A stretch of DNA of 64,000 bases, from assembly GCA_015062395.1 (NCBI GenBank), contig SUUS01000001.1, positions 65,429 to 129,428 on the forward strand. The letters are read 5' to 3'. A program made the position numbers and the translations under genes. Below the pieces are notes generated by a model that was not told the origin of the DNA, did not search any database, and saw only the letters and a program-made list of their open reading frames with translations. Below, in pieces: positions 8,999 to 58,809 of this stretch. The DNA comes from Alphaproteobacteria bacterium. Its GTDB lineage: Bacteria; Pseudomonadota; Alphaproteobacteria; CAAHEQ01; UBA3637. Position 1 is the first letter of the stretch, and every line of letters starts with the position of its first letter.

Positions 8999-9130
8999 AA
9001 TATCCTCTTTCATTAAAAATAATACCTTTGGCATTTTACAATCTTTTATTAAAAAATCAAGTCTTTTTATAAAAAAACTATTTGACGTTGCTTGTTTTTC
9101 TGCATACAATAGTCTTAGAGAGAGGGTTTT

Positions 9131-42453: not shown

Positions 42454-42530
42454 CGGAGCGTAGCTCAGTCTGGTAGAGTACTTGGTTTGGGACCAAGGTG
42501 CCGTAGGTTCAAATCCTATCGCTCCGACCA
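42454..42530 (+). tRNA. tRNA-Pro (anticodon TGG)
   Basis: 77 nt cloverleaf folded by hand: acceptor CGGAGCG/CGCTCCG, anticodon stem CTTGG/CCAAG loop TTTGGGA, T-arm GGTTCAAATCC, A73, CCA encoded. Confidence 0.9.
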
Positions 42531-43058: not shown

Positions 43059-43178
43059 TCACCTTTTTTTCAAGCTTTTTGTGATTGCTTCAATACCCGC
43101 TTTTACAGCGCGGTCAGCATCGGCCTTGGTTAATCCTGCTGTTTTAGCAATAGCTTCAACTAATTCTGTTTTATTCAT
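43059..43178 (-). pseudogene. Remnant of HU/IHF-family DNA-binding protein gene (first ~39 codons intact, then frameshift/decay)
   Basis: Minus-strand translation MNKTELVEAIAKTAGLTKADADRAVKAGIEAITKSLKKR* with AAGGAAA RBS; matches HU N-terminus (MNKTELV..IA...L.K)...; stop within poly-A tract; downstream frames do not resemble HU. Confidence 0.45.
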
Positions 43179-43322: not shown

Positions 43323-43351
43323 TTGACAAAAAAACAAAAAAGTGATATAAT
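43323..43351 (+). promoter_or_regulatory. Perfect consensus sigma70 promoter for second proS
   Basis: TTGACA (43323-43328) - 17 nt - TATAAT (43346-43351); RBS agagagagg before ATG 43394. Confidence 0.7.
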
Positions 43352-43393: not shown

Positions 43394-44908
43394 ATGACTT
43401 TAAAAAATACAAGAGCGAGCAACTATCCTGAGTGGTATCAGAATGTCATAACTGCAGCTGATATGGCAGAAGTATCTTCTTCGCCAGGATGCATGGTTAT
43501 TAAGCCTTGGGGGTATGGGATATGGGAACGTATTCAACGGGTTCTAGATGATAAGATCAAAGAAACAGGTCATGAGAATTGTTACTTTCCTCTATTTATT
43601 CCTTTAAGCTATTTTCAAAAAGAAGCAGAGCATGTTGAAGGTTTTGCTAAAGAAATGGCAATTGTTACTCATAGTCGCTTAACTATGCAAGATGGCAAAT
43701 TGACACCTGATGGAAAATTGGAAGAACCTCTTATTGTTCGTCCTACCTCTGAAACAATTATTGCGGATTCGTTCTCAAAATGGGTCAAATCATACAGAGA
43801 TTTGCCAATTATGATAAATCAATGGGCAAATGTTGTCCGTTGGGAGATGAGACCAAGAATCTTTTTACGAACAAGAGAGTTTTTATGGCAAGAAGGTCAC
43901 ACTGCACATGCTAGTTATGAGGAAGCGGAACAAGAAGCAAAAACCATGTTGAATGTGTATTCTGATGTGGCACGAGATGCTTTGGCTATGCCTGTTATAA
44001 AAGGACGCAAGCCCGAGCATGAAAAATTCCCAGGCGCTGTTGATACATATTGTATAGAAGCAATGATGCAGGATGGTAGAGCTTTACAAGCTGGTACCTC
44101 GCACTTTTTAGGCCAAAATTTTGCCAAATCAGCTGATATTAAGTTTCTAGGTAAGGATGGGAAACAACAATATGCATACACAACCTCTTGGGGTGTAACG
44201 ACACGTCTAATTGGTAGCTTAATTATGACGCACGCTGATGATGAAGGAATGGTCGTTCCTCCAAAGATTGCACCACATCAAATTGTTATCGTCCCTATCA
44301 TCAAAGATAAAGCTCAAAGAGAGGAAGTAATGTCCTACGTGATGCGCTTGTATTCTGCTTTATCTAAACAGAGCTATGATGGCGAAAAAATTCGTGTAAA
44401 AGTTGATACAAGAGACAAGGAATCTGTAGACAAAATGTGGGAGTGGACACGAAAAGGTGCCCCCATTGTATGTGAGGTTGGACCTCGTGACGTAAAAAAC
44501 AATGGTTTAATGGTCAGAACAAGAAATAAGATCAACACCCCAGAATGGAAACAAGTTGTTCAGTTTGATGATTTTGTTTCATCAGCTTCTAAGAGGTTGG
44601 AAGATTTCCATATGGATTTATATAACGCTGCGAATACTCGTTTACAACAAAATCAAAGAACAGATATTACAACGGCAGAGGAAATGCAAGCATATTTTGC
44701 GCAACAAAACTCTTGGGTAAACGGTCAAGGGCAAAAGGTAGCTTTTGTCCGTGGCAAATGGTCTGAAGATCCAGAAAGCGTTGATAAAATGAAGGAAATG
44801 AAAATTTCAATTCGCTGTATTCCTGAGGATCAATCTCAGAAGGAAGGAAATTGCCTTTTGACTAATAAAAAAGCGAAACTTGATGTTATTTATGCAAGAT
44901 CTTATTAG
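43394..44908 (+). CDS. proS: Proline--tRNA ligase, archaeal/eukaryote-like type (504 aa, C-terminal Tyr)
   Basis: Class II ProRS motifs (IVRPTSETII, FLRTREFLWQEGHTAH), no INS insertion, C-terminal domain ending ...IYARSY typical of archaeal-type ProRS. Confidence 0.9.
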   Translation: MTLKNTRASNYPEWYQNVITAADMAEVSSSPGCMVIKPWGYGIWERIQRVLDDKIKETGHENCYFPLFIPLSYFQKEAEHVEGFAKEMAIVTHSRLTMQDGKLTPDGKLEEPLIVRPTSETIIADSFSKWVKSYRDLPIMINQWANVVRWEMRPRIFLRTREFLWQEGHTAHASYEEAEQEAKTMLNVYSDVARDALAMPVIKGRKPEHEKFPGAVDTYCIEAMMQDGRALQAGTSHFLGQNFAKSADIKFLGKDGKQQYAYTTSWGVTTRLIGSLIMTHADDEGMVVPPKIAPHQIVIVPIIKDKAQREEVMSYVMRLYSALSKQSYDGEKIRVKVDTRDKESVDKMWEWTRKGAPIVCEVGPRDVKNNGLMVRTRNKINTPEWKQVVQFDDFVSSASKRLEDFHMDLYNAANTRLQQNQRTDITTAEEMQAYFAQQNSWVNGQGQKVAFVRGKWSEDPESVDKMKEMKISIRCIPEDQSQKEGNCLLTNKKAKLDVIYARSY

Positions 44909-44913
44909 AAAAA

Positions 44914-45573
44914 ATGAGCAAAATTTTTCTTTATCATGTAGATAAATCAAAAATTGATGAGTCTCAGCTTTCTGTTCTGGAGTCTATTTTGTCAGCAACA
45001 GAAAACAAAAGATTTAAAAAGATAAAAATGATAGATGCGAGAAAGAATTTTATTCTTTCTCGTTTTCTGATTAATAAGGCATTAATGAATTTCAATTGTG
45101 CGCAAAGATTTCATATTGGTAGAACTATATATGGGAAACCATATTTATCTCCAAATCCTAAAAATTTAAAAATATCAATAAGTCATACGAGAGATATTAT
45201 TTGCCTTTTAATTGCAAAAAATATAGAGTTTATAGGTGTTGATATAGAGGAAAAAAACAGAAAAATAAATAAAAAAGGTATTATAAATTTTCTGTACTCT
45301 CCTGATGAAAAATTGTATCTTAAAACAAAAGATTTGTATAAAAATTTTTTTAAATATTGGACCTTTAAGGAGGCATTTACGAAAGCTCTTGGAAAAGGAC
45401 TTTTAATTCCATTTAATCAAATATCCTTTTCCAAAAAATACCAAAAGTATTATGTTACCTCTGTGCCTATTGATATAAACTCTAATACAACAGGGTTCAT
45501 AGTATGTTTAGATAAAAATGAAAGATCAGCCGATATTAACATAAATAATGTTATTATAGGAGGGATAAAATGA
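44914..45573 (+). CDS. 4'-phosphopantetheinyl transferase, Sfp/EntD type
   Basis: 219 aa; motifs ISISHTRDIICLL and FIGVDIEE (metal-binding GxD..E), FKEAFTKALGKG (W/FxxKEA-K motif). Confidence 0.75.
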   Translation: MSKIFLYHVDKSKIDESQLSVLESILSATENKRFKKIKMIDARKNFILSRFLINKALMNFNCAQRFHIGRTIYGKPYLSPNPKNLKISISHTRDIICLLIAKNIEFIGVDIEEKNRKINKKGIINFLYSPDEKLYLKTKDLYKNFFKYWTFKEAFTKALGKGLLIPFNQISFSKKYQKYYVTSVPIDINSNTTGFIVCLDKNERSADININNVIIGGIK

Positions 45574-46409
45574 AAAGAATTTGTATTGCGACAGATGAAG
45601 ATAATATCAATGATCCTGAGAATTTACTAATTAGTAAAATTCTTAATGACATGGGAGCTAAAGCAGAATTGACTATTTGGGATAAACAAGAAAGTCTTTT
45701 CAAAGATTGCGACTATGTTTTAATTCGTTCTTGTTGGAATTATCACAAATACCCAGATAAATTTATTCAATGGATAAATTCTCTCAATATTCCAACAATC
45801 AACGCTAAGAGTTTAATCCAATGGAATATTCATAAAAAATATCTTCTTGAGTTAGAAAAACACAATATTGAAATTCCAAAAACATATGTTATTCAAAAAG
45901 AAAATGTAAAAGATTTTAATTTTAATATATTTGATGAATTTGTAATAAAACCAGCAATATCAGCAAGTGGCTATTTGACATATAAATATAATAAAAATGA
46001 TAGTGAAAAGGTAAATTCTTTACTTCCATTGTATTCTTCAGATGTTTTAATACAAGAATTCATTCCGGAAGTAATACAAGAAGGTGAAATATCCTTTGTA
46101 TTTTTCAACAATAGCTTTTCACATGCTGTAAAAAAAATACCTTCACTATCTGATTTCAGAAGTCAAGCAAGATATGGAGGAACTGTTAAAAATTTTATTC
46201 CAAATCAAGCTTTAAAAAATAAGGCAGTAGAAATAGTACAAAAAATCATGGATATCACTAACGAATGCCCTTTCTATATGAGATTAGATGCGGTTTTGAG
46301 AAAAAATAATTTAGTTATAATGGAAATTGAGGCAATTGAACCCAGGCTTTTTTTATCGAATTCAAATTGTGATATCTTTAAAAAAGCTTGGCAATCTATT
46401 CTTCCTTAA
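45570..46409 (+). CDS. ATP-grasp family ligase (RimK/glutathione-synthetase-like)
   Basis: ATP-grasp pattern FVIKPAISASGY...LIQEFIPEV...GEISFVFF; ATGA-coupled to PPTase. Confidence 0.6.
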   Translation: MKRICIATDEDNINDPENLLISKILNDMGAKAELTIWDKQESLFKDCDYVLIRSCWNYHKYPDKFIQWINSLNIPTINAKSLIQWNIHKKYLLELEKHNIEIPKTYVIQKENVKDFNFNIFDEFVIKPAISASGYLTYKYNKNDSEKVNSLLPLYSSDVLIQEFIPEVIQEGEISFVFFNNSFSHAVKKIPSLSDFRSQARYGGTVKNFIPNQALKNKAVEIVQKIMDITNECPFYMRLDAVLRKNNLVIMEIEAIEPRLFLSNSNCDIFKKAWQSILP

Positions 46410-49400
46410 CTGTATCTTCTAAAAGGGATATATACAAAGAAGCCCAGTCTTTAATGGTATTTATATCAAAACGATGAACATGATACCAAAAATTAAAACG
46501 AAGATTGCTTTTCTGCATGTCGACTATCAGAAATAATCCCGCTAATTCTCTTAAGGTTGAATAGTTTAATGTATTCAACAATGGTTCTGAAATGGTTCCA
46601 AGTGTTTCTAAAACTTCTACTTTAGGCCAGACATTGTCTTTTTCTTTGTGATAATTATTCAGCATGATATAGGCATCTGTGAAATAACTTGATCGAGAGA
46701 AATTCAAAAACTTTTCGACATACTTAGGTAAAAGATTCACTGGGTAGTAAGACCTTTCATTCACAAGAGATACAATACTATTAATTTGGGTTATTTGTGT
46801 CATATTAGAAAGAGTTTCATCTAAAGAAATCGGAAGTGGGAATTGTTTAACGAATGGGCCTATTGTTTCTTTAAAATTATCCTCTGTTCGTCCATTGAAA
46901 ACAGTTCCTATTAATAAATTATGTTGTCTTGTTAATTTTACCAATAACTTCGAATAAACAAACAACAATACTGAAAAAACGGATACATGCGCTTTATGAG
47001 CAAATTTATTTAAGGATTCATATACTTTTTCTGAAGAAAAAATGGTATAGCAACTTGACGGATAACACTGTTCAAAAAATTCATCTCCGGTTTTATTTGG
47101 CAAAATTACAGGACGTGCAATACCAGCATATAACCCACCAAAGAAGGCTTCATTTTCCTTTTCTGTCTCCAGTAAAAATTTATGTTGCCAATCTACATAT
47201 TGATCATAGAGAACTGGATTTGGGAGTCTCAAATGTGATTTTTGAAGAAAAGAGGCATAAAATTTTCTTAATTCTTCAACAAATACCGTCACAGATGTTC
47301 CATCGAATGGCAAATGATGCGTAAAAAGAAGACATATAAACTGATTATTATTTAACTTTAAAATTTTTAAAATCCAAGGTGGGGTTTTTGTAATATCAGG
47401 AAAAGAAGATGTTAACGTACATGCTAAATTTTTTATATATTCAGCAACATTTTCTACACCCTTCATATTCACAAAAATACTTTCACTAGAAATGAAATCT
47501 TTTATATTACAAGTTTCATAATGATTATCAACATAACAATGTGTCAAAATTGGATGTCTTGAAATAACCTCTTTTAAGGCGTTCAAAAATGAATTCTTTT
47601 TTAGTTCGCAATGGAAAAGTATTGGTATCAATAAATATCCATATTTAATTCTTTCTAATGCCACCCACCTTTGTTCTTCATATGATAACTTGTTTTCACT
47701 ATTGTTCTTATCCAAGACAATCTCTGTTTTTTCACATAGTTTTTTATCCAATGATTTACTGGAACAATTTTTGATACAAAAGGCTGTTAAATTTCTTAAA
47801 GTTCTTTCTTTAAATACAACACTAACAGGGAATGAAATATTTAACAAATGTCTAATAGCGTTACGTAATTCTATTGCGCTTAAAGAATCAAGTCCCAAAT
47901 CAAAAAGATCATCATCTTTTTCAATATGGCAATTATGTGTATATTTGTCTAAAACTCGAGCAACTTCGGATGAGACAATACTAGGAATGTCTTGAATGCT
48001 GTATTGAGTTAATGTATCCGTGTTCTTTTCCTCAACAGGCAAATAATCTTTTGCTAACAATCTAAAGAACGGGCTATTTTCGAGTTTATATTTTCTTAAA
48101 AAGATATTCCAATTCATAGGTAATAAAATTACCTGTTCTTGTAAACTAAGTATTGATGACATTATCTCATCGAAATCGTTTTTTTTAAGATAAGAATATC
48201 CCTTTTCTTCTAATTTCTGCTGTAGATTCTTGTTTATATCAATAGTTCCTAAGTCCCCCCATGCTCCCCAATTAATACTTAATGCTGGTAATCCCAAAGA
48301 TATCCTATATTTACACACAGAATCCAAGAATGCGTTTGCTGTTGTATAATTAGATTGTCCAGGATTTCCTATTACGGATACAGCGGAAGAAAAGACTACA
48401 AAAAAATCTAACTGTGTATTTAAAGAGAGTTTATGTAAATTCCATACTCCAAGAACCTTTGCCTTTGCAATTTTCTTAAAGTCCTCCATAGTCGTATTTG
48501 TAAAGGATTTATCCTCAATACAACCAGCCGCATGCACAATTCCACCGATATTTTTTATATCAAGTTTTGAAGACAATGCAAAAAACTTGCTCTCATCGGA
48601 AATATCCATACTTATATATTCTAGGTCTAATGTGTCATCAAGCAGCTTTAAAGTTCTTATTTGTTCTATCACCTCATTCTTTTCCCGACGGCCAACTATC
48701 ACAATTCGTTTTGCACCATTTTTAATGAGCCACTTACTGGTTAAAAGTCCTAATGCACCTACCCCCCCTGTCACTAAATATTGTTTTTTAGGAACTATAG
48801 TGAGTTTCCGTTCTGATGATAAAGAAATGGGGGCTAAAGTTGCTTCAAAGACACTTTTCCCGCCTGGATCAATTTGAAAAAAACTAAACGACTTTTGCTG
48901 ACGTATACACGAAGCAATCTTTGAAATAGAATTTTCTGTCAATGCCTTTGCAAAAAAACAAGAGCATTTGATTTCTGAATTTTCAAGACAAATTGTTTTT
49001 AAAAGAGAAACTAGAGATTCATTTAAAAAGTCATTACCAACAAAAATAAACGAAATATTTTCTATTTTCCCCATTAAAAAGGCTTCTTTTAAGGAATAAA
49101 AAACGTTTTTGATCTTATTTAAATAAAGCCTTAAGATATCAGATGAGGTGTAATTCTGCACATCATCGGAAATACTGTCTATAACATATACAATACGTTC
49201 TATTTTCTTCTTAAAAGAATCAAGTTTTTCTTTTAAGAAGAATGAGTTATTTGAAATATCTGTACTTACAAGGAGATTCTTTTCTGATGAGAAGTGTGCT
49301 ATTTGACTTTTATCTCCTATAATTAACGAATTCTCTATATAAGATTTAGAAAAATTAGAAAGCGAAACTGATTCCCATTGAATTTTGTATAAATCGTTTC

Positions 49401-52400
49401 TCCAACTTGCCTTTTGTAATAAATCAACCGGCTCAAGATAATATTTTTTTAAATCAAAAGGATAAGTTGGTAGTTCAATTAATAAACAATTATCTTTCGG
49501 TAGGATATGGTCAAAATTAACGGATATTCCTTTCGAAAATAATTTTCCAAATGCTGAAAGTAATTGTTCTGTATCATCAGTAGTTTTTCTCATCATAGGT
49601 ATATATGTTGCGTTCTGCTCATCATAACATTCTGCAACCATATTAAGAAGCACAGAATTTGGACCTATTTCCAAGAAAATATCAACATCCTTATTTTTTA
49701 AATTATGGATCATATTTTCAAAATTGACAGGTTGAATCATGTGGTTACACCAATAGTCTGAAGATATTTCTCCTGTTTGAATAAAATCCCCCGTTACATT
49801 TGAAAGTAATTTTATAAAAGGATCCTTAAATGAAAATTTGGAAAGATATTTTTTATATACCGCCACAAGGGGATTAGCAACACTTGAATGGCCAAAACTG
49901 CTGTTATCTAATTTTTGTGCTTCAATCTTCTGATCATGTAAAGCTTTAAAAAGTGATAGTATTCTCTCTGTTGGACCAGATACAACCACTAAATTAGGTG
50001 TATTGATAGATGCTATAGATATCTCATTATAGTTTTCCAACAGTTTTTCGACAGTATTTTTATTAGCTCTGATTGCTAACATTTTTGCATGAATTTTTAA
50101 TGAAGTTAACAAAACAGCTCTATGATAAACTATTTGAAGTAATTCATTTAATTTTAGTATACCAGCACAGTAAGCTGCAACGTATTCTCCCAAACTATGT
50201 CCTAATACAAATTTAGGCAAAATTGCCATTTGTTTTAAAATTTCTAGAATAGATACTTCTATGGCTACAATTGCCAGTTGATTTAAAATAACATCTTGTT
50301 CTGAATATTTTTCCTGTTTCCATATTATATCGATTAGATCAAAATCCGTAAATTTCTTTATAATTTTATTACATTCCTGAATCTTTTTCTTAAAAATAGC
50401 ATTTTTCTCATACAGCCTCTTTCCCATCCCAAAATATTGAGATGTATAACCAGAAAAAATAAAGGCAAGCTGTTGTTTTTGTGAGACCTTAAAATCATCT
50501 TTTGTAACAGATGGGAGTTTTAATCGTTTTTCAGTATTTGACAGTTCGTATATCAAACGATCCATTGTATTCGCAACAAAAGAGACCCTATAATCAAAAT
50601 GATATTTCCTCTTTAAAAGTGAATAAGAGATATCCTGTAGACGTAAATCACGATGATTTTCGAAGAAAATTCTATGATTGTGTATTATTTTAACTAAATC
50701 CTCGAATTTCTTTCCAGAAAAAACAAACAAATAAAAATTATTCTTTTGTTTTGTTTGGTTGTTTTTTTTGTGTGAATAACTTTCTAAAATGACATTAGCG
50801 TTAGTACCACCAAGACCAAAGGAATTCACTAAGCAATAATGTTTCTTTGATTTCCAAGGGATCGTTTTATTATTTACATAAAAGGGAGAATCATCCAACT
50901 CCAATAAGGGGTTATTTTTTTTAAAATGAAGTGTAGCAGGTATTTGTTTATGCTGAATACATAAAATTGCTTTTATTATCCCTGCCATGCCAGAAGCCCA
51001 ACCGAGATGACCTATATTAGTTTTTACGCTCCCAATAACGCAATCCCTTTTCCTATTATTACCGAAAACATTTTTTAATGCTTGGATTTCAACTGCATCT
51101 CCAACGACAGTTCCAGTTCCATGTGTTTCAATAAAAGAAATTTTATCTGGCAGTATGTTTGCATCTTTTAAAGCTTGCTGTAATGATCGTGTTTGTCCAT
51201 CAATTGTTGGTGCTAGAAAATTAGATTTCCCATTATTTCCATCATTACTAACACCACTTCCTGAAATAATGGCTAAAATATTATCTTTATCTTTTATGGC
51301 TTTTGATAGTGGTTTTAATAAAACTACTCCTAATCCTTGGGCCATCATCATACCTTCTGATCTTTCATCGAAAGTACGTGTATGGCCATCTGGTGACCAA
51401 GGCATGTCTTTTTGGAAAGTATATTTATGTTTTGATGGGGACATAATGTTTACAGCACCAACTAGTGCCATTTCACATTCTCCATTCAAAAGAGCTTGTT
51501 TTGCCAAGTGAATTGCAACCAACGATGAAGAACATGCAGATTGTACATTAATACTTGGTCCTTCTAACCCCAATTTAAAGGAAACTTTTGTTGGTAAGTA
51601 ATCCTTATCCCCGCCCATCATAACTTGCAAATCCGAAAAACGTTCGAAGAAATACCTATTAGAACGATAATCTAAGTTTGGGTTAAGGTTATTAACAAGA
51701 TAGCTACTAAATCCTTGGGAAGCAAAGACTCCTATCTTTTTAGTCGTATTATTGTTAAGATATCCTGTTTTTTCTAGTAGTTCCCAAGATAATTCCAAAA
51801 ACTTTCGTTGTTGTGGATCCATCATTTCTGCTTCAGTCTTTGAATATCCAAAGAATTCAGCATCAAACAAATTTGCATCATCAATTGTAGATGAACAAAA
51901 TACATCATGCTCAAAGGGATCCAGCATTGACAAATCCTGTGATGGGCCAAAAGATTCGATACTTTCTTTACCAGTTGAAAGAAAATTCCAAAATTCGTCA
52001 GGAGTATGGCACTTAGGAAAATTGCATGCCATTCCTATTACAGCGATTTTTTCTTTTACAGGTTTTCCAAAATCTTGAATAACTGCTTCTTTCCCCTGTA
52101 TTATATTTCCTTTTAAGAGATCAGATACAGCATTAAATGTACTATTTTTTAGTAGCATAGCAACTGGTATTTTTTGCTTGAATGTTTCGAAAATTTTCGT
52201 GTATAGCTGAAGCAAGAGTAATGAGGTTCCACCTAGCTCAAAGAATGTCTTATTTTTGTCAAAGTCGGTTATGTGCAAAAGATCTCGCCAGATTTCTTCC
52301 AACTTAGTCAATTCTGAATGGGTTGTTGTTTCTTTTTTTTCTATATACGTTTGAATTAATACTTTTCTATCCAGTTTCCCTGACGGGGTTCTCGGTAATT

Positions 52401-53811
52401 TGTCAATTACGACAAAATCTTTAGGAGTCATATAATTAGGCACCAGAGTACCAATGGATTGCTTTATATCCAAAATCTCAGTTTTTTCGTTTTTCAAGAC
52501 AATAAAAGCGACAAGGAAAGTGGGCCGATTTTCAGCCATTATCGGACAAACAGCACATTCAAGAACATTTTTATCTTTTGATAATAGGTACTCTATTTCT
52601 GCAAGTTCTATTCTATACCCACTTATTTTTACTTGGTCATCTTTTCGCCCAACGAATTCAAGTTGCTTTTTCTTGTTTAGCTTGACAATATCGCCTGTTG
52701 CATATAGAAGATTTTTTGTGTTTTGAGGATCTGGGATGAAAGATTTATTTGTATCCTTTGGATTATTTACATACCCTTTAGCAATAAACGGAGCACAGAT
52801 AAACAATTCACCCTCCGTAGTAGCTGTAAGTTTTTCATTTAGAATTTTTAACTGTATATTGGATATAGGCTTTCCTATGGGAGGGAGTTTCCCCCACTGA
52901 TTAACATTCTTTGGTAATGTAAACGAAGTGACAACATGGGTCTCACTCGGACCATACTGATTGATTAGACGGCAATGCTTTAGAATTTTAAAAAAAGAAC
53001 GAATTACTGGCGTTATAATCAACTGTTCACCGGCTGTGATTACTTCTTTAAGAGAGGTAGGAAAGGTTTTATTAAGATCTGCGATTTGCGCTATGTAATT
53101 TAACATTACTGCGGGGAGAAAAATCCGTTCAATCTTGAACTTGTCAATTAAGTACAGCAGTTTTTCAGGATCTTTTCTTTCATTTTCTTCAATCAGTACT
53201 AATGAAGCACCCGTACATAAAGTAGAAAAAATTTCTTGAAAAGAAACATCGAAGCTAATTGGGGCAAATTGTAATGTTCTTTTTATCGCAGATTCTTTAA
53301 TTTGCCATGTAATAAGATTTTCAAGAACTGATGTTGGCATAACAACACCCTTTGGAGCTCCCGTAGAACCAGAAGTAAATATAATATAGGCCAATTTACC
53401 AAAACCGTTATTGTTTACGGTTTTATTTCCCCTTGAATTTTTAATTATCTTTTCAAAAAAAACAAACTTTTTATTTCTTTTGTCAATGGTTACATCATCT
53501 GTGATAATTAAATTTGTACCGGATTTTTCCTGCATAAAATTCAAACGCTCGACAGGATAACTCTTATCAAGTGGAACATAAGGGTTTCCAGACTTTAGAA
53601 TTCCTAAAATAGAGATAATTAACTCTATTGATCTGTCAAATAGTACTCCTACTGGTTTCTTATAATTTAATGATTTTATATAACCTGCAACTAAATCTGA
53701 TTTGAAATCTAATTCTCCATAAGTTAGCTCTATACCATCCTTAATAATGGCTACCTTATCGGGAGTCTCGACACAAATCTTCTTAAAATTGTTATATAAA
53801 CTACTTTGCAT
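46396..53811 (-). CDS. Hybrid NRPS-PKS megasynthase: A - T - KS - AT - KR - ACP - C (2471 aa)
   Basis: A domain cores (LTYGEL, LKSGNPYVPLD, YIIFTSGSTGAPKGV, YATGD, GRKDDQVKISGYRIELAEIE, PSGKLDR); T (ELGGTSL, Ser ~530); KS (QSACSSS Cys~760, ETHGTGT, NIGHL); AT (GHSLGE Ser~1206); KR (TGGVGALG, NYTTAN); ACP (LGLDSL Ser~1976); C-terminal condensation domain (HHLPFDG ~2165-2171); no TE. Confidence 0.9.
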   Translation of the reverse strand: MQSSLYNNFKKICVETPDKVAIIKDGIELTYGELDFKSDLVAGYIKSLNYKKPVGVLFDRSIELIISILGILKSGNPYVPLDKSYPVERLNFMQEKSGTNLIITDDVTIDKRNKKFVFFEKIIKNSRGNKTVNNNGFGKLAYIIFTSGSTGAPKGVVMPTSVLENLITWQIKESAIKRTLQFAPISFDVSFQEIFSTLCTGASLVLIEENERKDPEKLLYLIDKFKIERIFLPAVMLNYIAQIADLNKTFPTSLKEVITAGEQLIITPVIRSFFKILKHCRLINQYGPSETHVVTSFTLPKNVNQWGKLPPIGKPISNIQLKILNEKLTATTEGELFICAPFIAKGYVNNPKDTNKSFIPDPQNTKNLLYATGDIVKLNKKKQLEFVGRKDDQVKISGYRIELAEIEYLLSKDKNVLECAVCPIMAENRPTFLVAFIVLKNEKTEILDIKQSIGTLVPNYMTPKDFVVIDKLPRTPSGKLDRKVLIQTYIEKKETTTHSELTKLEEIWRDLLHITDFDKNKTFFELGGTSLLLLQLYTKIFETFKQKIPVAMLLKNSTFNAVSDLLKGNIIQGKEAVIQDFGKPVKEKIAVIGMACNFPKCHTPDEFWNFLSTGKESIESFGPSQDLSMLDPFEHDVFCSSTIDDANLFDAEFFGYSKTEAEMMDPQQRKFLELSWELLEKTGYLNNNTTKKIGVFASQGFSSYLVNNLNPNLDYRSNRYFFERFSDLQVMMGGDKDYLPTKVSFKLGLEGPSINVQSACSSSLVAIHLAKQALLNGECEMALVGAVNIMSPSKHKYTFQKDMPWSPDGHTRTFDERSEGMMMAQGLGVVLLKPLSKAIKDKDNILAIISGSGVSNDGNNGKSNFLAPTIDGQTRSLQQALKDANILPDKISFIETHGTGTVVGDAVEIQALKNVFGNNRKRDCVIGSVKTNIGHLGWASGMAGIIKAILCIQHKQIPATLHFKKNNPLLELDDSPFYVNNKTIPWKSKKHYCLVNSFGLGGTNANVILESYSHKKNNQTKQKNNFYLFVFSGKKFEDLVKIIHNHRIFFENHRDLRLQDISYSLLKRKYHFDYRVSFVANTMDRLIYELSNTEKRLKLPSVTKDDFKVSQKQQLAFIFSGYTSQYFGMGKRLYEKNAIFKKKIQECNKIIKKFTDFDLIDIIWKQEKYSEQDVILNQLAIVAIEVSILEILKQMAILPKFVLGHSLGEYVAAYCAGILKLNELLQIVYHRAVLLTSLKIHAKMLAIRANKNTVEKLLENYNEISIASINTPNLVVVSGPTERILSLFKALHDQKIEAQKLDNSSFGHSSVANPLVAVYKKYLSKFSFKDPFIKLLSNVTGDFIQTGEISSDYWCNHMIQPVNFENMIHNLKNKDVDIFLEIGPNSVLLNMVAECYDEQNATYIPMMRKTTDDTEQLLSAFGKLFSKGISVNFDHILPKDNCLLIELPTYPFDLKKYYLEPVDLLQKASWRNDLYKIQWESVSLSNFSKSYIENSLIIGDKSQIAHFSSEKNLLVSTDISNNSFFLKEKLDSFKKKIERIVYVIDSISDDVQNYTSSDILRLYLNKIKNVFYSLKEAFLMGKIENISFIFVGNDFLNESLVSLLKTICLENSEIKCSCFFAKALTENSISKIASCIRQQKSFSFFQIDPGGKSVFEATLAPISLSSERKLTIVPKKQYLVTGGVGALGLLTSKWLIKNGAKRIVIVGRREKNEVIEQIRTLKLLDDTLDLEYISMDISDESKFFALSSKLDIKNIGGIVHAAGCIEDKSFTNTTMEDFKKIAKAKVLGVWNLHKLSLNTQLDFFVVFSSAVSVIGNPGQSNYTTANAFLDSVCKYRISLGLPALSINWGAWGDLGTIDINKNLQQKLEEKGYSYLKKNDFDEIMSSILSLQEQVILLPMNWNIFLRKYKLENSPFFRLLAKDYLPVEEKNTDTLTQYSIQDIPSIVSSEVARVLDKYTHNCHIEKDDDLFDLGLDSLSAIELRNAIRHLLNISFPVSVVFKERTLRNLTAFCIKNCSSKSLDKKLCEKTEIVLDKNNSENKLSYEEQRWVALERIKYGYLLIPILFHCELKKNSFLNALKEVISRHPILTHCYVDNHYETCNIKDFISSESIFVNMKGVENVAEYIKNLACTLTSSFPDITKTPPWILKILKLNNNQFICLLFTHHLPFDGTSVTVFVEELRKFYASFLQKSHLRLPNPVLYDQYVDWQHKFLLETEKENEAFFGGLYAGIARPVILPNKTGDEFFEQCYPSSCYTIFSSEKVYESLNKFAHKAHVSVFSVLLFVYSKLLVKLTRQHNLLIGTVFNGRTEDNFKETIGPFVKQFPLPISLDETLSNMTQITQINSIVSLVNERSYYPVNLLPKYVEKFLNFSRSSYFTDAYIMLNNYHKEKDNVWPKVEVLETLGTISEPLLNTLNYSTLRELAGLFLIVDMQKSNLRFNFWYHVHRFDINTIKDWASLYISLLEDTVKEE

Positions 53812-54043
53812 GATTCTGAATGAAACTCACAACATCCCCTATCGCTTTCATTTTGGCTATTTCTTCATTTGGAAAAGAAATATTAAATTTTTCTTCCAAC
53901 CGAAAAAATAAATCCATTTTATCTAAGGAATCCACTTCCATTTCTTTAAAAGACATATCACTGGTCAATATCTTATCATGTAAAGCGAACTTTACCTCTT
54001 TTAACGTTTCTTGAACTATTTGAAAAATATCGTTATCACTCAT
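53801..54043 (-). CDS. Discrete acyl carrier protein
   Basis: 80 aa, MEVDSLDKMDL with DSL phosphopantetheine-attachment motif; overlaps megasynthase start by 11 nt. Confidence 0.75.
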   Translation of the reverse strand: MSDNDIFQIVQETLKEVKFALHDKILTSDMSFKEMEVDSLDKMDLFFRLEEKFNISFPNEEIAKMKAIGDVVSFIQNHAK

Positions 54044-55004
54044 TTTTGCCTCCTGTCAATGTTAATAAACAATTACACCAAGAAAAACCCGTTCCAAATC
54101 CAGATAATACAAGGTAATTAGCATCTTTTTGTTTCAGATGTGGCTCTAGGATTAATGGGATTGATGATGAACTCGTATTACCATAATTAGCCGCTTTGAA
54201 TTTTAACTGATTTTCTTTTAGATTCAGGGTCGAAGATAATCTTTCCAGTAGATATCTTGATGGTTGATGACACAAAAACTCAGAAATATCACAAGTATCC
54301 AGTCCGTTTTTTAACAATAAGTTTTTAATTGATGCTGGAATTTCTTTCAACACATTATTAAAGACCATACGACCATCCATTCTTAAAAAATTTTTTTCTA
54401 TTATGGTCTCATAAGAATTTGGCAATGTTCCAAAATCCCAATCTTTTAAAATATATCCTGTTGAAACATCTTTTGTTATATAAGTCACTGTTGCTGCGTC
54501 GCCAAAGAGTAATACTGTATTTTTATCTTTTGGGTCTAGAATCCTCGATAACTGGTCACATGTGAAGAAGAGAGCGTTTTTCAAATGAAGGGTTTTCATC
54601 ATAGATAAAACGGTTAGTAAAGCATGGCAAAAACCAGCACATCCTTGACCGATATCAAAAGTAATACATTTTTTTGATAAACCTATTTTATTATGTAAAA
54701 TCGCGGACATATATGGAGCCTTATGATCTGGTGTTTGTGTTACCGTACATACTAAATCAATATTTTCAATGTCAATTTTGATTTTTTTCTCTAAATCATG
54801 CCATGCAGATAAACACATATCAGCCAAAGTCTGATGTTCTTTTATTTTAGACCTCCTAATTATTCCCAATTTATTTTCTATGAAATCTGGACTTACCTCA
54901 AAAGTTGTTAATAAATCCATATTATTTACATAGTTATCTGGAATATAAGTGCCAATACATTTTATTTTAAAGTTTTGCAAGCTCATCCCTCCTATTGATT
55001 TCAT
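54036..55004 (-). CDS. 3-oxoacyl-ACP synthase III (FabH-like KAS III)
   Basis: Active-site Cys in GQGCAGF, His/Asn region, C-terminal GFGTGFSW. Confidence 0.8.
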   Translation of the reverse strand: MKSIGGMSLQNFKIKCIGTYIPDNYVNNMDLLTTFEVSPDFIENKLGIIRRSKIKEHQTLADMCLSAWHDLEKKIKIDIENIDLVCTVTQTPDHKAPYMSAILHNKIGLSKKCITFDIGQGCAGFCHALLTVLSMMKTLHLKNALFFTCDQLSRILDPKDKNTVLLFGDAATVTYITKDVSTGYILKDWDFGTLPNSYETIIEKNFLRMDGRMVFNNVLKEIPASIKNLLLKNGLDTCDISEFLCHQPSRYLLERLSSTLNLKENQLKFKAANYGNTSSSSIPLILEPHLKQKDANYLVLSGFGTGFSWCNCLLTLTGGKNE

Positions 55005-56067
55005 ATATTGGGAAATATGTTGGAATTTCAGAATTTTGATAATCTAGTATTAGTTGTGGAATATCTTCCCAACAATAGGTATACACGTCATCTATTATAG
55101 GCATCCAATTGTGCGAAATTGCATAGTTCATCGCATCTAAAGCTTCCTGACGATTTGCATAATGAGTATTTACATGTATGTGTCGATTAATGCATTCAAC
55201 CGTTCTTGAAATAGGAAGTAAGGATCCTGTCTTCCAACCACATGATGAAATTACGGCGTTCCTTCCCAATCCTTTTAGTGCTATTTTTGTGAATGTTCCT
55301 CCTAAATTATCTATAAATATTGATGCTCCCTCATTATGTGTTTCTCTTGAAATATACGACAAAAAATCTTTTTCAAAATCCTTAAATGTGGTTCGATTTA
55401 TGGGGATTATCCCTGAAGAACGAGCATATCTCTCTCTGTACTCATTTGATACCGTCATATAAACACTAAACCCCACTTTTTTTGCGAGAAGAAGTTCAGC
55501 ATATGAAACTCCACCACCATAAGCAAAAACGGACAATCCCTTTGGCTTTCGTTTCGAAAAGGTTTGTATTTTCCAACAGCCATACGCTTGCCGCCAATTT
55601 GAATAAGCAGAAATGAAGCGACCAGAGAATGCGGCCCATTGTTTCAAGGAAAATTGTGAATTTGGGGGTATCTTAATAACCTGTTCCTCTTTCAATTTGA
55701 TTTTTTTTGCTAAATTTCCCATAATTCCTTTTGCATCATAACCCGCTATCTTTATCGGATAACCTTGGGCGTCAGAGATACCATTCCCAAAATAAATGGC
55801 AAAATCACCAATTTCCACTGAGGAAACCTTCTTTCCTCTATTTTGAATATAAAGAACACCAGTATTACCCAAAATTATTTCTTCTTCTGCTCTATCTTCA
55901 TTAATGTTTGTGGGAACTTTTTGTACAGCATGTAAGATGTTTGCTTCAAAACAACCATAAACAGGTAAAGCCAATACCTCATCATCCTCAATATCCGGAA
56001 AATGAATTATTTTTCGTTCTAAAATAGATGAATCCTTCTGTAAAACATACGCCTCTGTTTCAATCAT
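54967..56067 (-). CDS. Medium-chain dehydrogenase/reductase family oxidoreductase (putative trans-acting enoyl reductase)
   Basis: MDR fold with nucleotide-binding AYGGGVSYAELLLAKKVG; operon position between KAS III and DH. Confidence 0.55.
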   Translation of the reverse strand: MIETEAYVLQKDSSILERKIIHFPDIEDDEVLALPVYGCFEANILHAVQKVPTNINEDRAEEEIILGNTGVLYIQNRGKKVSSVEIGDFAIYFGNGISDAQGYPIKIAGYDAKGIMGNLAKKIKLKEEQVIKIPPNSQFSLKQWAAFSGRFISAYSNWRQAYGCWKIQTFSKRKPKGLSVFAYGGGVSYAELLLAKKVGFSVYMTVSNEYRERYARSSGIIPINRTTFKDFEKDFLSYISRETHNEGASIFIDNLGGTFTKIALKGLGRNAVISSCGWKTGSLLPISRTVECINRHIHVNTHYANRQEALDAMNYAISHNWMPIIDDVYTYCWEDIPQLILDYQNSEIPTYFPIYEINRRDELAKL

Positions 56068-56840
56068 TTTTTGCTCCGAAGTAAATACGTTTTACTCAAA
56101 GTACTTGGCTGTATTTTGGATATTATACTAAAACCAATTTGTTTAATCTCATCCTCTGATACATCTTCGTATAAAAGAGTTGCAGCTTTTTGTGGTAAAC
56201 GTAACAGAATATTAACATTAGTTTTGGCGGTATCTTTAATTTTTAATAATGTTTTTTTCTTATTAGATAGTCCATTTGCTAAAAGTACGATATTTTCATC
56301 CTTATACGAGAAATCAAAGGATCTCTTTTTTATAAACGTGAAATCTTTTGAAATATCTTTGGAGCACGTCTGTTTGATATACGCTTCAGAGGCTTTAAGA
56401 GCTTGTGTATCATAATCCAAACAAACTGGTATAATCCTCTGATAATTTTGTTTAAGTTCAATTAATGTTTCAGGGTGGTATCCACTACCAGCCATAAGAC
56501 AACGTTTCTGGCTGGATAGATCCTTAATAAGATTAAATTCGCAAAGAACTCCAGCATATCCTTCTTTTTCAAGAATGGATATGCTATTTACCTTTTCACC
56601 ATTCAAAAAATCCTTAACCTTGTTCCTTTCTAATTCTTTTATATACTTATTCCATTTTAAAGAAATTTCCTTTTTATCATCAGAAGATAAAGAAGTAAGC
56701 AAGTCAGAGATTTCATTTTCAGATAAACCAATTAAAATCTTCCAAAAATCCTGAAAGACTAATAAGTCAGGTTCAGTGTAATAAGCCTTTAAAGGTATAG
56801 ATAAAACCTTTTGCGTAATTTGTAATATGGACACTCTCAT
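56064..56840 (-). CDS. Hypothetical protein (258 aa), possible SAM-dependent/nicotianamine-synthase-like fold
   Basis: Weak resemblance of CLMAGSGYHPETL and NIVLLANGL to Rossmann-type SAM-binding motifs; in-operon, ATGA-coupled to downstream gene. Confidence 0.35.
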   Translation of the reverse strand: MRVSILQITQKVLSIPLKAYYTEPDLLVFQDFWKILIGLSENEISDLLTSLSSDDKKEISLKWNKYIKELERNKVKDFLNGEKVNSISILEKEGYAGVLCEFNLIKDLSSQKRCLMAGSGYHPETLIELKQNYQRIIPVCLDYDTQALKASEAYIKQTCSKDISKDFTFIKKRSFDFSYKDENIVLLANGLSNKKKTLLKIKDTAKTNVNILLRLPQKAATLLYEDVSEDEIKQIGFSIISKIQPSTLSKTYLLRSKK

Positions 56841-56912
56841 AATTCATACATCAAATCATTCAAACATTTTCGTTTAGTATACTTTAAAATACACCCTAGA
56901 GTCAACAAAAAA

Positions 56913-57353
56913 TTACTCACTGACAGCAGTTGAAGAAAAAATAGCTTCTGCAACAATTCTATTGTTGATTCTAATTGTTCCTTCAAACTTATAAGCATTA
57001 CCGATAGAGTGTTTTTTTATAGCCTCAATGTAAAGAGTATCTCCAGGGCGAGCTTGCCCTCTAAATTTTGCACTTTCAATAGTCATAAAAAGAAAAATTA
57101 AATTATGACATTTTCTTTCTTTAAGGTCAAAATACATCAGTATATTCGACAATTGGGACATTGCTTCAACAAAGAAAGTTCCAGGAAAAATGGGGTTATT
57201 TGGGAAATGTCCTTTTAAGAAGAATTCATCTGATGAAATTTCTTTTATGCCCGAAATTTTATCACTGGTATAGTCCAACACAGCGTCAACCATCAACATA
57301 GGATAACGATGCGGAAGAATTGTTTTTATTTTTTCTAAATCTAAACTTGGCAT
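56913..57353 (-). CDS. 3-hydroxyacyl-ACP dehydratase FabZ-like (hotdog fold)
   Basis: LPHRYPMLMVD and GHFPNNPIFPG FabZ signatures; first gene of minus-strand biosynthetic operon. Confidence 0.8.
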   Translation of the reverse strand: MPSLDLEKIKTILPHRYPMLMVDAVLDYTSDKISGIKEISSDEFFLKGHFPNNPIFPGTFFVEAMSQLSNILMYFDLKERKCHNLIFLFMTIESAKFRGQARPGDTLYIEAIKKHSIGNAYKFEGTIRINNRIVAEAIFSSTAVSE

Positions 57354-57376
57354 AAAAACTCCACTGGCTAGTTAGT

Positions 57377-57440
57377 ATGGAAAATTTGTGATAAGAACAA
57401 CTTTTTAGACAGGGACAAAAGAATGTGTCTAAAAAGTTGT
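57377..57440. repeat. 25-bp perfect inverted repeat (hairpin, 14-nt loop) between tRNA-Pro(CGG) and FabZ-like gene
   Basis: tgtgataagaacaactttttagaca (57377-57401) / tgtctaaaaagttgttcttatcaca (57416-57440), loop gggacaaaagaatg. Confidence 0.8.
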
Positions 57441-57452
57441 TCTTATCACATT

Positions 57453-57529
57453 TGGTCGGAGTGGCGGGATTTGAACCCACGACCCCTACGTCCCGAACGT
57501 AGTGCTCTACCAAACTGAGCTACACTCCG
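57453..57529 (-). tRNA. tRNA-Pro (anticodon CGG)
   Basis: Minus-strand 77-nt cloverleaf: acceptor CGGAGTG/CACTCCG, anticodon stem CTACG/CGTAG loop TTCGGGA, T-arm GGTTCAAATCC, A73, CCA encoded. Confidence 0.85.
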
Positions 57530-57653
57530 ATTTTTTATTTATCTTTTTTTGAAGTTATATCAAAAGAACCATAAAACATCAAGTATTTTTTAAAATTTTC
57601 TTGCCTTTTTTGCTATTTTCCAATATCATCAAATTAAAAAGTTGGAGTAAAAT

Positions 57654-58073
57654 ATGACAAAGTACGAAGAAAAAGTAAAACAATTTCACAAAGTAATGAA
57701 CTTACCTGTAAATAGTCAATTTAACGTTGAATTATTACAGTTAAGAAAAAAACTTATTTTAGAAGAAACTCAAGAACTTATTGCAGAGTTGGATTATGCG
57801 ATTAACCAACTTCAGACAAAAGATAAGTCCGTTTTACGCCCTACTTTCGAAAATATGTGTAAAGAAATGGCCGATGTACAATATGCTTTATCAGGACTGG
57901 CTATTTCTTTTGGTTTACCGATAGAAGAAGCTTTTGATGCTACACACAACAGCAATATGTCTAAATTAGGTAATGATGGGAAACCCGTTTACAGAGAAGA
58001 TGGAAAGATTACCAAAGGTCCAAATTATCATAAGCCAGATTTATCAAATCTTATTCAGAAAGTAGAAGAATAA
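57654..58073 (+). CDS. MazG-like nucleotide pyrophosphohydrolase family protein
   Basis: 139 aa all-alpha; EExxE/ExxD-type motifs LILEETQELIAEL ... EMADVQYAL; GGAG RBS. Confidence 0.5.
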   Translation: MTKYEEKVKQFHKVMNLPVNSQFNVELLQLRKKLILEETQELIAELDYAINQLQTKDKSVLRPTFENMCKEMADVQYALSGLAISFGLPIEEAFDATHNSNMSKLGNDGKPVYREDGKITKGPNYHKPDLSNLIQKVEE

Positions 58074-58074
58074 A

Positions 58075-58809
58075 ATGGAAAAATTCATTCAAAATCATCA
58101 CATATACAGCTATGAATGTGACAAAGAAGGAAAATTAAGGTTATTAACATTATTCAATCTTTTGCAACACATGGCCGATTCGCATGCAGATTTATTAAAT
58201 CTTGGATATAAAAATTTTTCCACTCGAAATATAACTTGGGTTGGTTCGCATTATGCACTTCACATAAATAAACGTCCAAAATGGAATGAAAACGTTATTA
58301 TTGAAACATGGCCATCTGGTTTGGGACCTGTTTCTGCGATTCGAGACTTTAGGGTTCTATCCCCCAAAAATGAACCTTTATTTACTGCATCGAGTCAATG
58401 GGTCATAATTGATTTAAGTTCTGGTCGGCCTCAACCGACAAAAAAATATGTTAATAATTTAGAATCGCTTGAAGAAAGAGCTCTTGATACAAAGTTTCCT
58501 ACCATACCAACTGTTCAAAGACAGGATTTTCAGAAAGATTTTTATGTTCGTTACGATGATATAGACATCAATCAACATGTGAATAATGCTATTTATCCTG
58601 TTTGGGCTAGCGAGTCGGTCCCTAATGACTTTAGAGAATCGAACGAAATCGAAGATTTAGAAATTTCATTCAAAAAACCAGCATTTTATGGACAAAAAAT
58701 AAAAGTTTCAACTCAAATTGATGAAAATACATCGCTTCATCAAATTTTTTCAGATGATAAAAGCATTGAATTTGCTCGCATTCGTATAAAATGGCGTAAA
58801 AAAAGTTAA
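58075..58809 (+). CDS. Acyl-ACP thioesterase (FAT/FatA-B family, tandem hotdog)
   Basis: 244 aa; YECDKEGKLRL..., NQHVNNAIY conserved acyl-ACP TE motifs; 1-nt gap after MazG-like gene. Confidence 0.7.
   Translation: MEKFIQNHHIYSYECDKEGKLRLLTLFNLLQHMADSHADLLNLGYKNFSTRNITWVGSHYALHINKRPKWNENVIIETWPSGLGPVSAIRDFRVLSPKNEPLFTASSQWVIIDLSSGRPQPTKKYVNNLESLEERALDTKFPTIPTVQRQDFQKDFYVRYDDIDINQHVNNAIYPVWASESVPNDFRESNEIEDLEISFKKPAFYGQKIKVSTQIDENTSLHQIFSDDKSIEFARIRIKWRKKS

Follow-up and report, generated by a model that had tools for sequence, protein, structure and literature searches.

A compact biosynthetic gene cluster (BGC) occupies positions 43394-58809 of the window, that is, of the whole 64-kb stretch of metagenome-derived DNA from an uncultured alphaproteobacterium analysed here. 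The cluster combines a hybrid nonribosomal peptide synthetase-polyketide synthase (NRPS-PKS), whose adenylation code is of the proline type, with a second prolyl-tRNA synthetase (ProRS2). Here, I propose that it is a BGC for a small proline-derived polyketide amide, that it belongs to a cross-phylum family carrying its own ProRS, and that the product targets ProRS, ProRS2 acting as the immunity enzyme; taken as a whole, this proposal is about evenly poised between being right and being wrong.

The core of the cluster is a megasynthase of 2471 aa (46396-53811, minus strand) with the domain order adenylation (A), thiolation (T), ketosynthase (KS), acyltransferase (AT), ketoreductase (KR), acyl carrier protein (ACP) and condensation (C), an order that the first-pass annotation had read from motifs by hand and that Pfam confirms: AMP-binding at residues 11-479, PP-binding, KS at 587-963, AT at 1117-1429, KR at 1678-1852, a second PP-binding domain at 1962-2011 and Condensation at 2066-2469. 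The catalytic motifs are all intact, namely FTSGSTGAPKG, GGTS, ACSSS / HGTGT / NIGH, GHSLGE, TGGVGALG with SNYTTAN, LDSL and HHLPFDG, and both carrier domains keep their serine. In window coordinates, always on the minus strand, the A domain lies at 52375-53781 (PF00501, 1.8e-57; TIGR01733, 326 bits against a cutoff of 317; A3 motif and Lys517 present), the KS at 50923-52053 (Cys-His-His intact), the AT at 49525-50463 (GHSLGE, with SFGH as a non-canonical specificity motif), the KR at 48256-48780 (canonical Tyr, NADPH motif) and the terminal C domain at 46405-47616 (HHLPFDG). The KR reads IED at the LDD position and would, by inference, be B-type. The family profile of the C domain finds its best matches among ordinary elongation C/E domains (BacC 9rde, PvdL, TycC), and the domain is probably of the ordinary amide-forming type. 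An A pocket, the KS, AT, KR, carrier and C motifs and a cognate Sfp-type 4'-phosphopantetheinyl transferase (PPTase; 44914-45573, plus strand; Pfam ACPS PF01648 and AASDHPPT_N PF22624) are all present, as expected of an assembly line. A polyunsaturated (PUFA) or primary fatty-acid synthase was considered and rejected, for the PfaA model TIGR02813 reaches 375 bits against a cutoff of 1010 and A and C domains are present. A near-identical copy of the locus occurs in JGI contig Ga0224413_10006068 (99.98% identical to the window over 12.4 kb; L001, 4661-5366), where a TTA to TGA change at megasynthase codon 204 (window ~53201) splits the protein into products of 203 and 2236 aa; it is either a nonsense allele of that population or a sequencing error.

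As judged from its pocket residues, the A domain is of the proline type. Its code, DVQMIAQVVK, compares with DVQFIAHVVK for the proline-activating GrsB1 and TycB1, and the extraction was checked on these two controls, for both of which the published DVQFIAHVV was recovered. The pocket segment scores 109 bits with GrsB1 and 105 bits with TycB1, against 63 bits for the next match. Across the full-length relatives (n = 13, eleven with a terminal C domain and two without) every code follows DVQ-x-[I/N]-[A/S]-[Q/H]-V-[V/C]-K; ten read DVQxIAQVVK, and the remaining three differ at one or two positions and are still proline-like. The Gln that replaces His at position 322 in the window is found in the same ten relatives.

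Two prolyl-tRNA synthetases of different type are encoded within the one window, 7 kb apart. ProRS2 (43394-44908, plus strand, 504 aa) is an archaeal/eukaryote-type proline-tRNA ligase (TIGR00408, 490 bits against a cutoff of 437) with the Pfam domains tRNA-synt_2b, HGTP_anticodon and ProRS-C_1; its best PDB match is the Thermus thermophilus enzyme (1h4q, 436 bits), its core motifs are kept, and from its sequence it looks catalytically normal. ProRS1, which lies outside the interval (34919-36637, minus strand), is a bacterial-type, INS-containing enzyme that matches PRK09194 (675 bits against a cutoff of 558) and not the INS-less alphaproteobacterial model PRK12325. The first-pass annotation had the interval start right at 43394, but overlooked both the ORF that begins there, ProRS2, and the proline specificity of the A domain. 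Only 5 nt separate the stop of ProRS2 from the start of the PPTase gene, which in turn overlaps the gene of an ATP-grasp ligase (45570-46409, plus strand), so that the three genes look like a single operon; the PPTase and the ATP-grasp ligase, already proposed as a pair convergent to the megasynthase, are borne out by Pfam. A promoter-like site for this operon (43323-43351, plus strand), by consensus match only, consists of a perfect TTGACA-17-TATAAT with an extended TG, 43 nt upstream of the ProRS2 ATG, the regional total of such matches being not above that of shuffles. A search of the same upstream region against Rfam for an RNA leader (T-box or similar) gave nothing credible. A second synthetase for the same amino acid, placed inside the cluster and kept in homologous clusters, is the pattern expected of self-resistance.

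Neighbourhoods of related synthases were gathered by exact-protein look-ups and by a genome scan and a metagenome scan with an alignment of the C domain, and were annotated with one reference set. In the genome collection the whole megasynthase used as query gave no matches, and the C-domain family alignment gave 13 loci. Full-length colinear homologs share only 30-34% identity with the window megasynthase, and the homologous synthases adjoined by a ProRS share 30-50%. A gene of the ProRS2 type, 36-54% identical to ProRS2, lies beside a homologous synthase in some 13 distinct loci including the window, namely the window itself, L009, L011, L013 (cut by a contig end), L016 (a spore-former), L043 and L045, and, with named hosts, L019 (Moraniibacteriota), L020 (Patescibacteria), L021 (Ca. 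Lithacetigena), L022 (Actinomycetota), L023 (Aquabacterium) and the L025-27/L042 group (Clostridia). The chance that a given single-copy gene falls within 10 kb of the synthase is below about 1%. A PPTase is found in most family loci, and the ProRS-PPTase order of the window is repeated in L019-L021. Moreover, pairwise identities of ProRS and synthase are correlated (Mantel r 0.83, p 2e-4), and L021 shares 68-70% identity for both proteins with two loci of the Candidate Phyla Radiation (CPR) despite differently labelled host taxa, which together indicate that ProRS and synthase move as a unit. The family, whose named hosts belong to Alphaproteobacteria, Patescibacteria, Clostridia, Actinomycetota and Betaproteobacteria, has clearly spread horizontally.

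Two members of the family have flanks of their own interest. In L011 (843-19925) the genes for AccA, AccB, AccC, AccD, a biotin ligase, FabD, FabG and FabZ stand beside the synthase and its ProRS, which would make the locus independent in its supply of malonyl units, as might suit a host that lacks fatty-acid synthesis. In L009/L010, type IV thin-pilus, PilS and shufflon genes (an R64-like conjugation apparatus) lie upstream of the cluster and transposase fragments lie between the synthase and its ProRS, which suggests plasmid carriage.

From these genes a route may be drawn. Proline would be loaded on the first T domain and condensed with one (alkyl)malonyl unit, and beta-keto reduction would give a 2-substituted 3-hydroxy-3-(pyrrolidin-2-yl)propanoyl-S-ACP, which the terminal C domain would release as an amide with an amine. 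The extender would itself be built on a carrier, from acetyl and malonyl-ACP by way of the 3-ketoacyl, 3-hydroxyacyl and enoyl intermediates to alkylmalonyl-ACP, through a beta-ketoacyl-ACP synthase III (KAS III), a discrete ACP, a FabZ-type dehydratase and an enzyme of the medium-chain dehydrogenase/reductase (MDR) superfamily resembling enoyl-CoA carboxylase/reductases (ECR), host FabG or the KR of the synthase performing the keto reduction; the non-canonical AT would accept this unit. As tailoring special to the window cluster, an enzyme resembling nicotianamine synthase (NAS) and CntL would add a 3-amino-3-carboxypropyl group derived from S-adenosylmethionine (SAM), and the ATP-grasp ligase would make a further amide. 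The product or an intermediate would inhibit ProRS, or be mischarged by it, and the co-transcribed archaeal-type ProRS2 would keep translation going in the producer, a self-resistance role suggested by analogy with mupirocin and borrelidin.

The genes for the extender form, together with the megasynthase, a minus-strand operon, in the order FabZ-type 3-hydroxyacyl-ACP dehydratase (56913-57353; PRK00006, 131.5 bits against a cutoff of 113; Pfam FabA), NAS/CntL-like protein (56064-56840), MDR enzyme (54967-56067), FabH-like KAS III (54036-55004; PRK09352, 209 bits), discrete ACP (53801-54043; serine of the DSL motif kept) and megasynthase. Successive genes overlap by 4-38 nt, the sole gap measuring 72 nt (56841-56912); the operon, its 72-nt largest gap and the coordinates of the ORFs and tRNA-Pro genes are as first annotated, and the description of a compact hybrid NRPS-PKS with a gene set resembling type II fatty-acid synthase (FAS) and a terminal C domain is likewise supported. 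The Cys, His and Asn of KAS III are conserved in an alignment to FabH structures, and the cassette holds no elongating KS (FabF/FabB).

The MDR enzyme had been taken for the enoyl reductase of a fatty-acid set; it now appears ECR-like, or like the crotonyl-CoA carboxylase/reductases (CCR), with residues that align with those of the CO2 pocket, and is a probable enoyl-thioester reductive carboxylase. A PDB sequence search with the single protein was uninformative, and with a profile of its family the best hit was CCR 4gi2 (E 5.5e-13), further CCR/ECR entries coming next. Its AlphaFold2 (AF2) model (pLDDT 91.5) was matched by Foldseek to AntE (TM-score normalised to the query, 0.82) and to ECRs (0.79-0.80), quinone oxidoreductase (QOR) and alcohol dehydrogenase (ADH) structures being similar at 0.73-0.79. 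In ECR, the CO2 pocket is made up of Asn81, Phe170, Glu171 and His365, the second of which may be replaced by Tyr (PMC6628652); by remote profile alignment, these positions (N81, F170, E171, H365) correspond to N43, Y110, D111 and H302, which are invariant in the MDR family. The relationship is distant, identity to solved ECRs being about 15-20% and the NCBIfam model crot-CoA-red reaching only 19 bits against a cutoff of 379, and the family is very small, with 55 members at E<=1e-10 in a search of 5.8 billion proteins. As for the AT, the known motifs are HAFH for malonyl, YASH for methylmalonyl, TAGH for ethylmalonyl and FAGH/HAGH for methoxymalonyl extenders (PMC7327777), and the position reads SFGH in the window and [R/T/V]AGH in relatives, TAGH among them. 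An ECR-like MDR enzyme, a non-canonical AT motif and the lack of an elongating KS together favour a single round of synthesis towards an alkylmalonyl-ACP extender over a fatty acid, and the set of KAS III, ACP, FabZ, ECR-like MDR and non-canonical AT points to a dedicated alkylmalonyl extender.

The KAS III-ACP-MDR cassette is met beside plain PKS genes in L049 (Azospirillum sp. B510, pAB510a, 216146-253222) and occurs in L047 (Myxococcus), and in L048, whose protein is named Bradyrhizobium by NCBI, only the MDR and ACP accompany the PKS. None of these three loci (L047-L049) has a ProRS gene. A plasmid search with the MDR enzyme returned Azospirillum and Burkholderia loci with the cassette or with the MDR gene alone, the proline synthase and ProRS being absent. 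The cassette was seen either next to unrelated PKS genes or alone with a short-chain dehydrogenase/reductase (SDR) and an acyl-AMP ligase. Its presence beside unrelated PKSs that lack a ProRS makes it a separable module; it is a portable accessory module, uncharacterised as far as the literature searched shows.

The 258-aa product of the second gene of the operon, listed as unknown in the first-pass annotation, can be assigned a fold. The protein has no Pfam match of its own, and 13 of its 28 remote homologs match Pfam NAS (PF03059). The top Foldseek matches of its AF2 model (pLDDT 93.3) are MtNAS 3fpe and CntL 7c9m, over the full length and with TM of 0.74-0.75, as against about 0.5 for ordinary methyltransferases; identity to NAS/CntL is about 15%. 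Glu71 (E71) is invariant among its homologs and is a candidate counterpart of E81 in MtNAS. A SAM-dependent transferase of the aminocarboxypropyl type with the NAS/CntL fold is thus a reasonable assignment on the strength of the predicted model. In L018-L021 a homolog is encoded between PPTase and A domain, and L022 also has one; in many other family loci an ordinary methyltransferase ('MT'), whose best solved relative is HvrF 9e72, replaces the NAS-like gene. Neither SAM enzyme could be identified as an azetidine-2-carboxylate (AZE) synthase, AzeJ/VioH being absent from the 50 best PDB structures that Foldseek returned for the 258-aa model and giving no match to the family 'MT' at E<=0.01, and this identity was retained as a minor rival only. 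The ATP-grasp ligase is DcsG-like (NF058666 DcsG, 99 bits, cutoff 360), with DcsG 6jil as its sole PDB match; no homolog was found in the other family loci annotated, and it is particular to the window cluster.

As one alternative to immunity, ProRS2 might have no functional link to the cluster in this genome, being a normal lineage-wide gene that the cluster merely adjoins, for example after insertion or recombination at the ProRS or tRNA-Pro neighbourhood. There are more than 100 clusters of ProRS2 homologs at 69-89% identity, the few with source names being mostly metagenome-assembled genomes (MAGs) of Alphaproteobacteria, and all three contexts examined (81%, 74% and 70% identity) are unrelated ones with no NRPS-PKS nearby; the gene thus also occurs outside producers in this lineage, of which it may be an ordinary gene. 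A remnant of an HU gene and an 860-nt gap upstream of ProRS2, described below, also suggest rearrangement. Set against this are the same adjacency in some 12 other loci with named hosts from at least four phyla, the low chance expectation given above, the 5-nt junction between ProRS2 and the PPTase gene and the ProRS-PPTase order common to L019-L021, and I consider a mere neighbourhood unlikely. In this lineage, ProRS2 is either an ordinary gene adjoining the cluster or an immunity gene persisting as orphan copies. The ProRS might instead protect against a proline antimetabolite, the SAM enzyme making a toxic imino acid (e.g. AZE) that the proline-like A domain loads and against whose misincorporation ProRS2 discriminates. 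Plant nicotianamine synthases do form AZE for their terminal unit, the 258-aa protein has the NAS/CntL fold, NAS-like genes stand immediately ahead of the A domain and beside the ProRS in L018-L021, and Q322 marks the A code of 10 of 13 relatives. The AzeJ/VioH clusters, where AZE synthase genes are linked to aminoacyl-tRNA synthetase (aaRS) and ATP-grasp genes, resemble the present ones in a SAM-consuming non-methylating enzyme, NRPS A domains, horizontal spread and occurrence in Patescibacteria (PMC11794875). They differ in that their aaRS is class I (PMC11794875) and that AzeJ/VioH is not among the best matches of either SAM enzyme, neither among the 50 best structural matches to the model of the 258-aa protein nor for the 'MT' that replaces it, which is nearest to HvrF. 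Since, in addition, L011 and L025-27 have a ProRS and no SAM enzyme in view, an antimetabolite is also improbable.

Two further explanations concern what the terminal C domain joins. According to the first-pass annotation, the product could be a lipo-amino acid, the FAS-like set making a fatty acyl-ACP that the C domain attaches to the aminoacyl-polyketide. A dedicated set of KAS III, ACP, dehydratase and MDR adjoins the synthase and a FAT-type thioesterase is nearby, as this would require; yet a long chain would need the elongating KS (FabF/FabB) that is missing, the MDR enzyme resembles ECRs and has residues that align with their CO2 pocket, and an unusual extender is suggested by the AT motif. 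Nor is the C domain a starter (lipo-initiation) domain, and the same cassette is found with plain PKSs elsewhere; all this leaves a lipo-amino acid quite improbable. Alternatively ProRS2 could be biosynthetic, the amine acceptor coming from Pro-tRNA that it supplies or from its direct prolylation of the discrete carrier protein. An elongation-type C domain expects a tethered aminoacyl acceptor and the window holds no second A-T pair, the synthase gene has that of a discrete carrier protein beside it, and aaRS-like amino acid:carrier-protein ligases are known in alphaproteobacteria. ProRS2, however, has the full length of a tRNA-charging enzyme, anticodon-binding and C-terminal domains included, L019-L021 have a ProRS while the region examined there yielded no discrete carrier protein, and C domains are not known to use aminoacyl-tRNA; a biosynthetic ProRS2 is accordingly a very improbable reading.

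Several observations weigh against the reading of ProRS2 as an immunity enzyme for a product that targets ProRS, beyond the cluster-free homologs, which depart from the rule that an extra copy used in self-resistance is restricted to producers. ProRS is absent from seven loci with informative flanks (L015, L024, L028, L029, L035, L036 and L041), a number to be read as 'at least seven'. The ProRS nearest to that of the window do not come from the loci with the nearest synthases. No exporter is evident in the cluster. On the chemical side, the extender scheme is built on motif and remote-homology arguments: the MDR enzyme has Asp where ECR has Glu171, and the AT motif is SFGH rather than TAGH. 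The catalytic Tyr of the KR is replaced by His in all 11 full-length relatives (P0002-P0066; NHAAAN as against SNYTTAN in the window, aa ~1822), with the NADPH motif kept, and the chemistry may differ across the family; most full-length relatives also read QHxDFDG instead of HHxxxDG in the C domain. Finally, the scheme leaves the amine acceptor of the C domain open between an intramolecular, a free and a tethered amino group. A bolder version of the same proposal, in which the window is the founding member of a family of compact proline-specific NRPS-PKSs that has spread horizontally and makes the first bacterial natural-product inhibitor of ProRS, with the archaeal-type ProRS travelling as the immunity gene and the orphan ProRS2 copies in alphaproteobacterial MAGs amounting to community-level resistance, is tentative and rather more doubtful than credible.

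One of the ProRS2 homologs without an NRPS-PKS, the 81%-identical one in L030 (8728-21515), has a transposase gene ahead of it; behind it come genes of the radical-SAM/SPASM, ScmC-like and NTP-transferase types, more radical-SAM genes and one that is AlaRS-like. The locus is possibly a further aaRS-linked cluster.

BGCs with a self-resistance aaRS are of a known kind, as exemplified by mupirocin (IleRS MupM), borrelidin (ThrRS BorO), obafluorin (ThrRS ObaO), indolmycin (TrpRS) and albomycin (SerRS). As in these, there are two synthetases for one amino acid, the divergent one being in the cluster, co-transcribed and kept in homologous clusters; unlike in these, the extra ProRS is also widespread in relatives without the cluster, and the resistance is predicted from the genes. 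What is new is the predicted target, ProRS, together with the accessory enzymes and a single-module architecture closed by a C domain. In the literature searched I found no described pathway for the cluster, no description of the DVQxIAQVVK code or of a ProRS-linked NRPS-PKS family (resistance-guided leads such as rhabdobranin and gammanonin included), no ProRS-linked bacterial cluster, and no bacterial natural product or BGC aimed at ProRS.

NRPS-PKS modules that extend proline are known from dolaproine (dolastatin 10) and detoxinine (detoxin/rimosamide). They too join proline to one ketide and reduce the beta-keto group, which yields a 3-hydroxy(or methoxy)-3-(pyrrolidin-2-yl)propanoyl unit, and many loci of the window family add a methyltransferase; here, however, the module is the entire assembly line, ends in a C domain without a downstream A-T, and is joined by the KAS III-ACP-ECR cassette and a ProRS. 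With the CCR, CinF, AntE and FK506 TcsA-D systems (the last acting on a carrier protein) the cluster shares an ECR-like MDR with a KS and an ACP beside a PKS, and an AT without the malonyl and methylmalonyl motifs. The KAS III partner, the Asp for Glu171, the low identity to ECRs and the small size of the family set it apart. The 258-aa protein agrees with NAS/CntL (staphylopine) in its full-length fold match and in the NAS matches of its remote homologs, and differs in its setting, which is an NRPS-PKS cluster lacking a CntM-like dehydrogenase and not an opine-metallophore operon. Among natural ProRS inhibitors the classic one is febrifugine/halofuginone, an alkaloid that plants make by an unrelated route. 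A product of the form pyrrolidinyl-CH(OH)-CH(R)-CO-NH-X, as predicted here, would share its topology, a 2-substituted saturated N-heterocycle, a short oxygenated three-atom linker and an N-linked group, an analogy to be taken as a lead only.

ProRS is a validated drug target, halofuginone being used against malaria, toxoplasmosis and fibrosis, and a proline-specific NRPS-PKS with a conserved ProRS gene is the kind of signature used in target-directed genome mining. As a candidate the cluster is concrete, expressible and, at about 14 kb, small, and with its family it shows that an uncultured alphaproteobacterium and Patescibacteria can carry assembly-line chemistry. It also brings to light two enzyme families about which little is known: an ECR-like MDR clade tied to KAS III and ACP, and NAS/CntL-like transferases in NRPS-PKS clusters.

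The first-pass annotation regarded the cluster as carried on a tRNA-Pro-associated island, which is not upheld: the locus has no mobile-island hallmark. There is no integrase among the window ORFs and no att-like or tRNA-derived direct repeat, and GC content shows no shift (0.30-0.35 inside, 0.31-0.37 outside). The two flanking tRNA-Pro genes, (UGG) at 42454-42530 (plus strand) and (CGG) at 57453-57529 (minus strand), are different isoacceptors in inverted orientation, with no evidence of cluster membership; a dedicated tRNA-Pro as part of the cluster was rejected, as none occurs in 28 other loci and the call in L022 falls inside an ORF. Between tRNA-Pro(UGG) and ProRS2 lies an 860-nt non-coding gap which holds the HU remnant, a 39-aa ORF (43059-43178, minus strand) with a clear HU/IHF-family N-terminus, MNKTELVEAIAKTAGLTKADADRAVKAGIEAIT, and apparently truncated; remnant and gap hint at a past rearrangement.

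As to the remaining features, a perfect 25-bp hairpin between tRNA-Pro(CGG) and the start of FabZ (57387-57450, minus strand; dG -38.8 kcal/mol, z -8.5) may serve the biosynthetic operon as terminator, processing site or operator. The FAT-type acyl-ACP thioesterase (58075-58809, plus strand), confirmed by the N- and C-terminal Acyl-ACP_TE domains of Pfam, is adjacent to the cluster and of uncertain membership, no homolog being found in the other family loci annotated. The alphaproteobacterial origin presumed in the first-pass annotation agrees with the alpha-type AddA/AddB in the window and with the NCBI name of an identical ProRS, 'Alphaproteobacteria bacterium'. The window also encodes an archaeal-like 'alt' ValRS (6386-9109, minus strand; NF000540), an autotransporter beta-barrel without an obvious passenger domain in the same ORF (41389-42213, plus strand) and a Fic-domain protein (61007-61831, minus strand).

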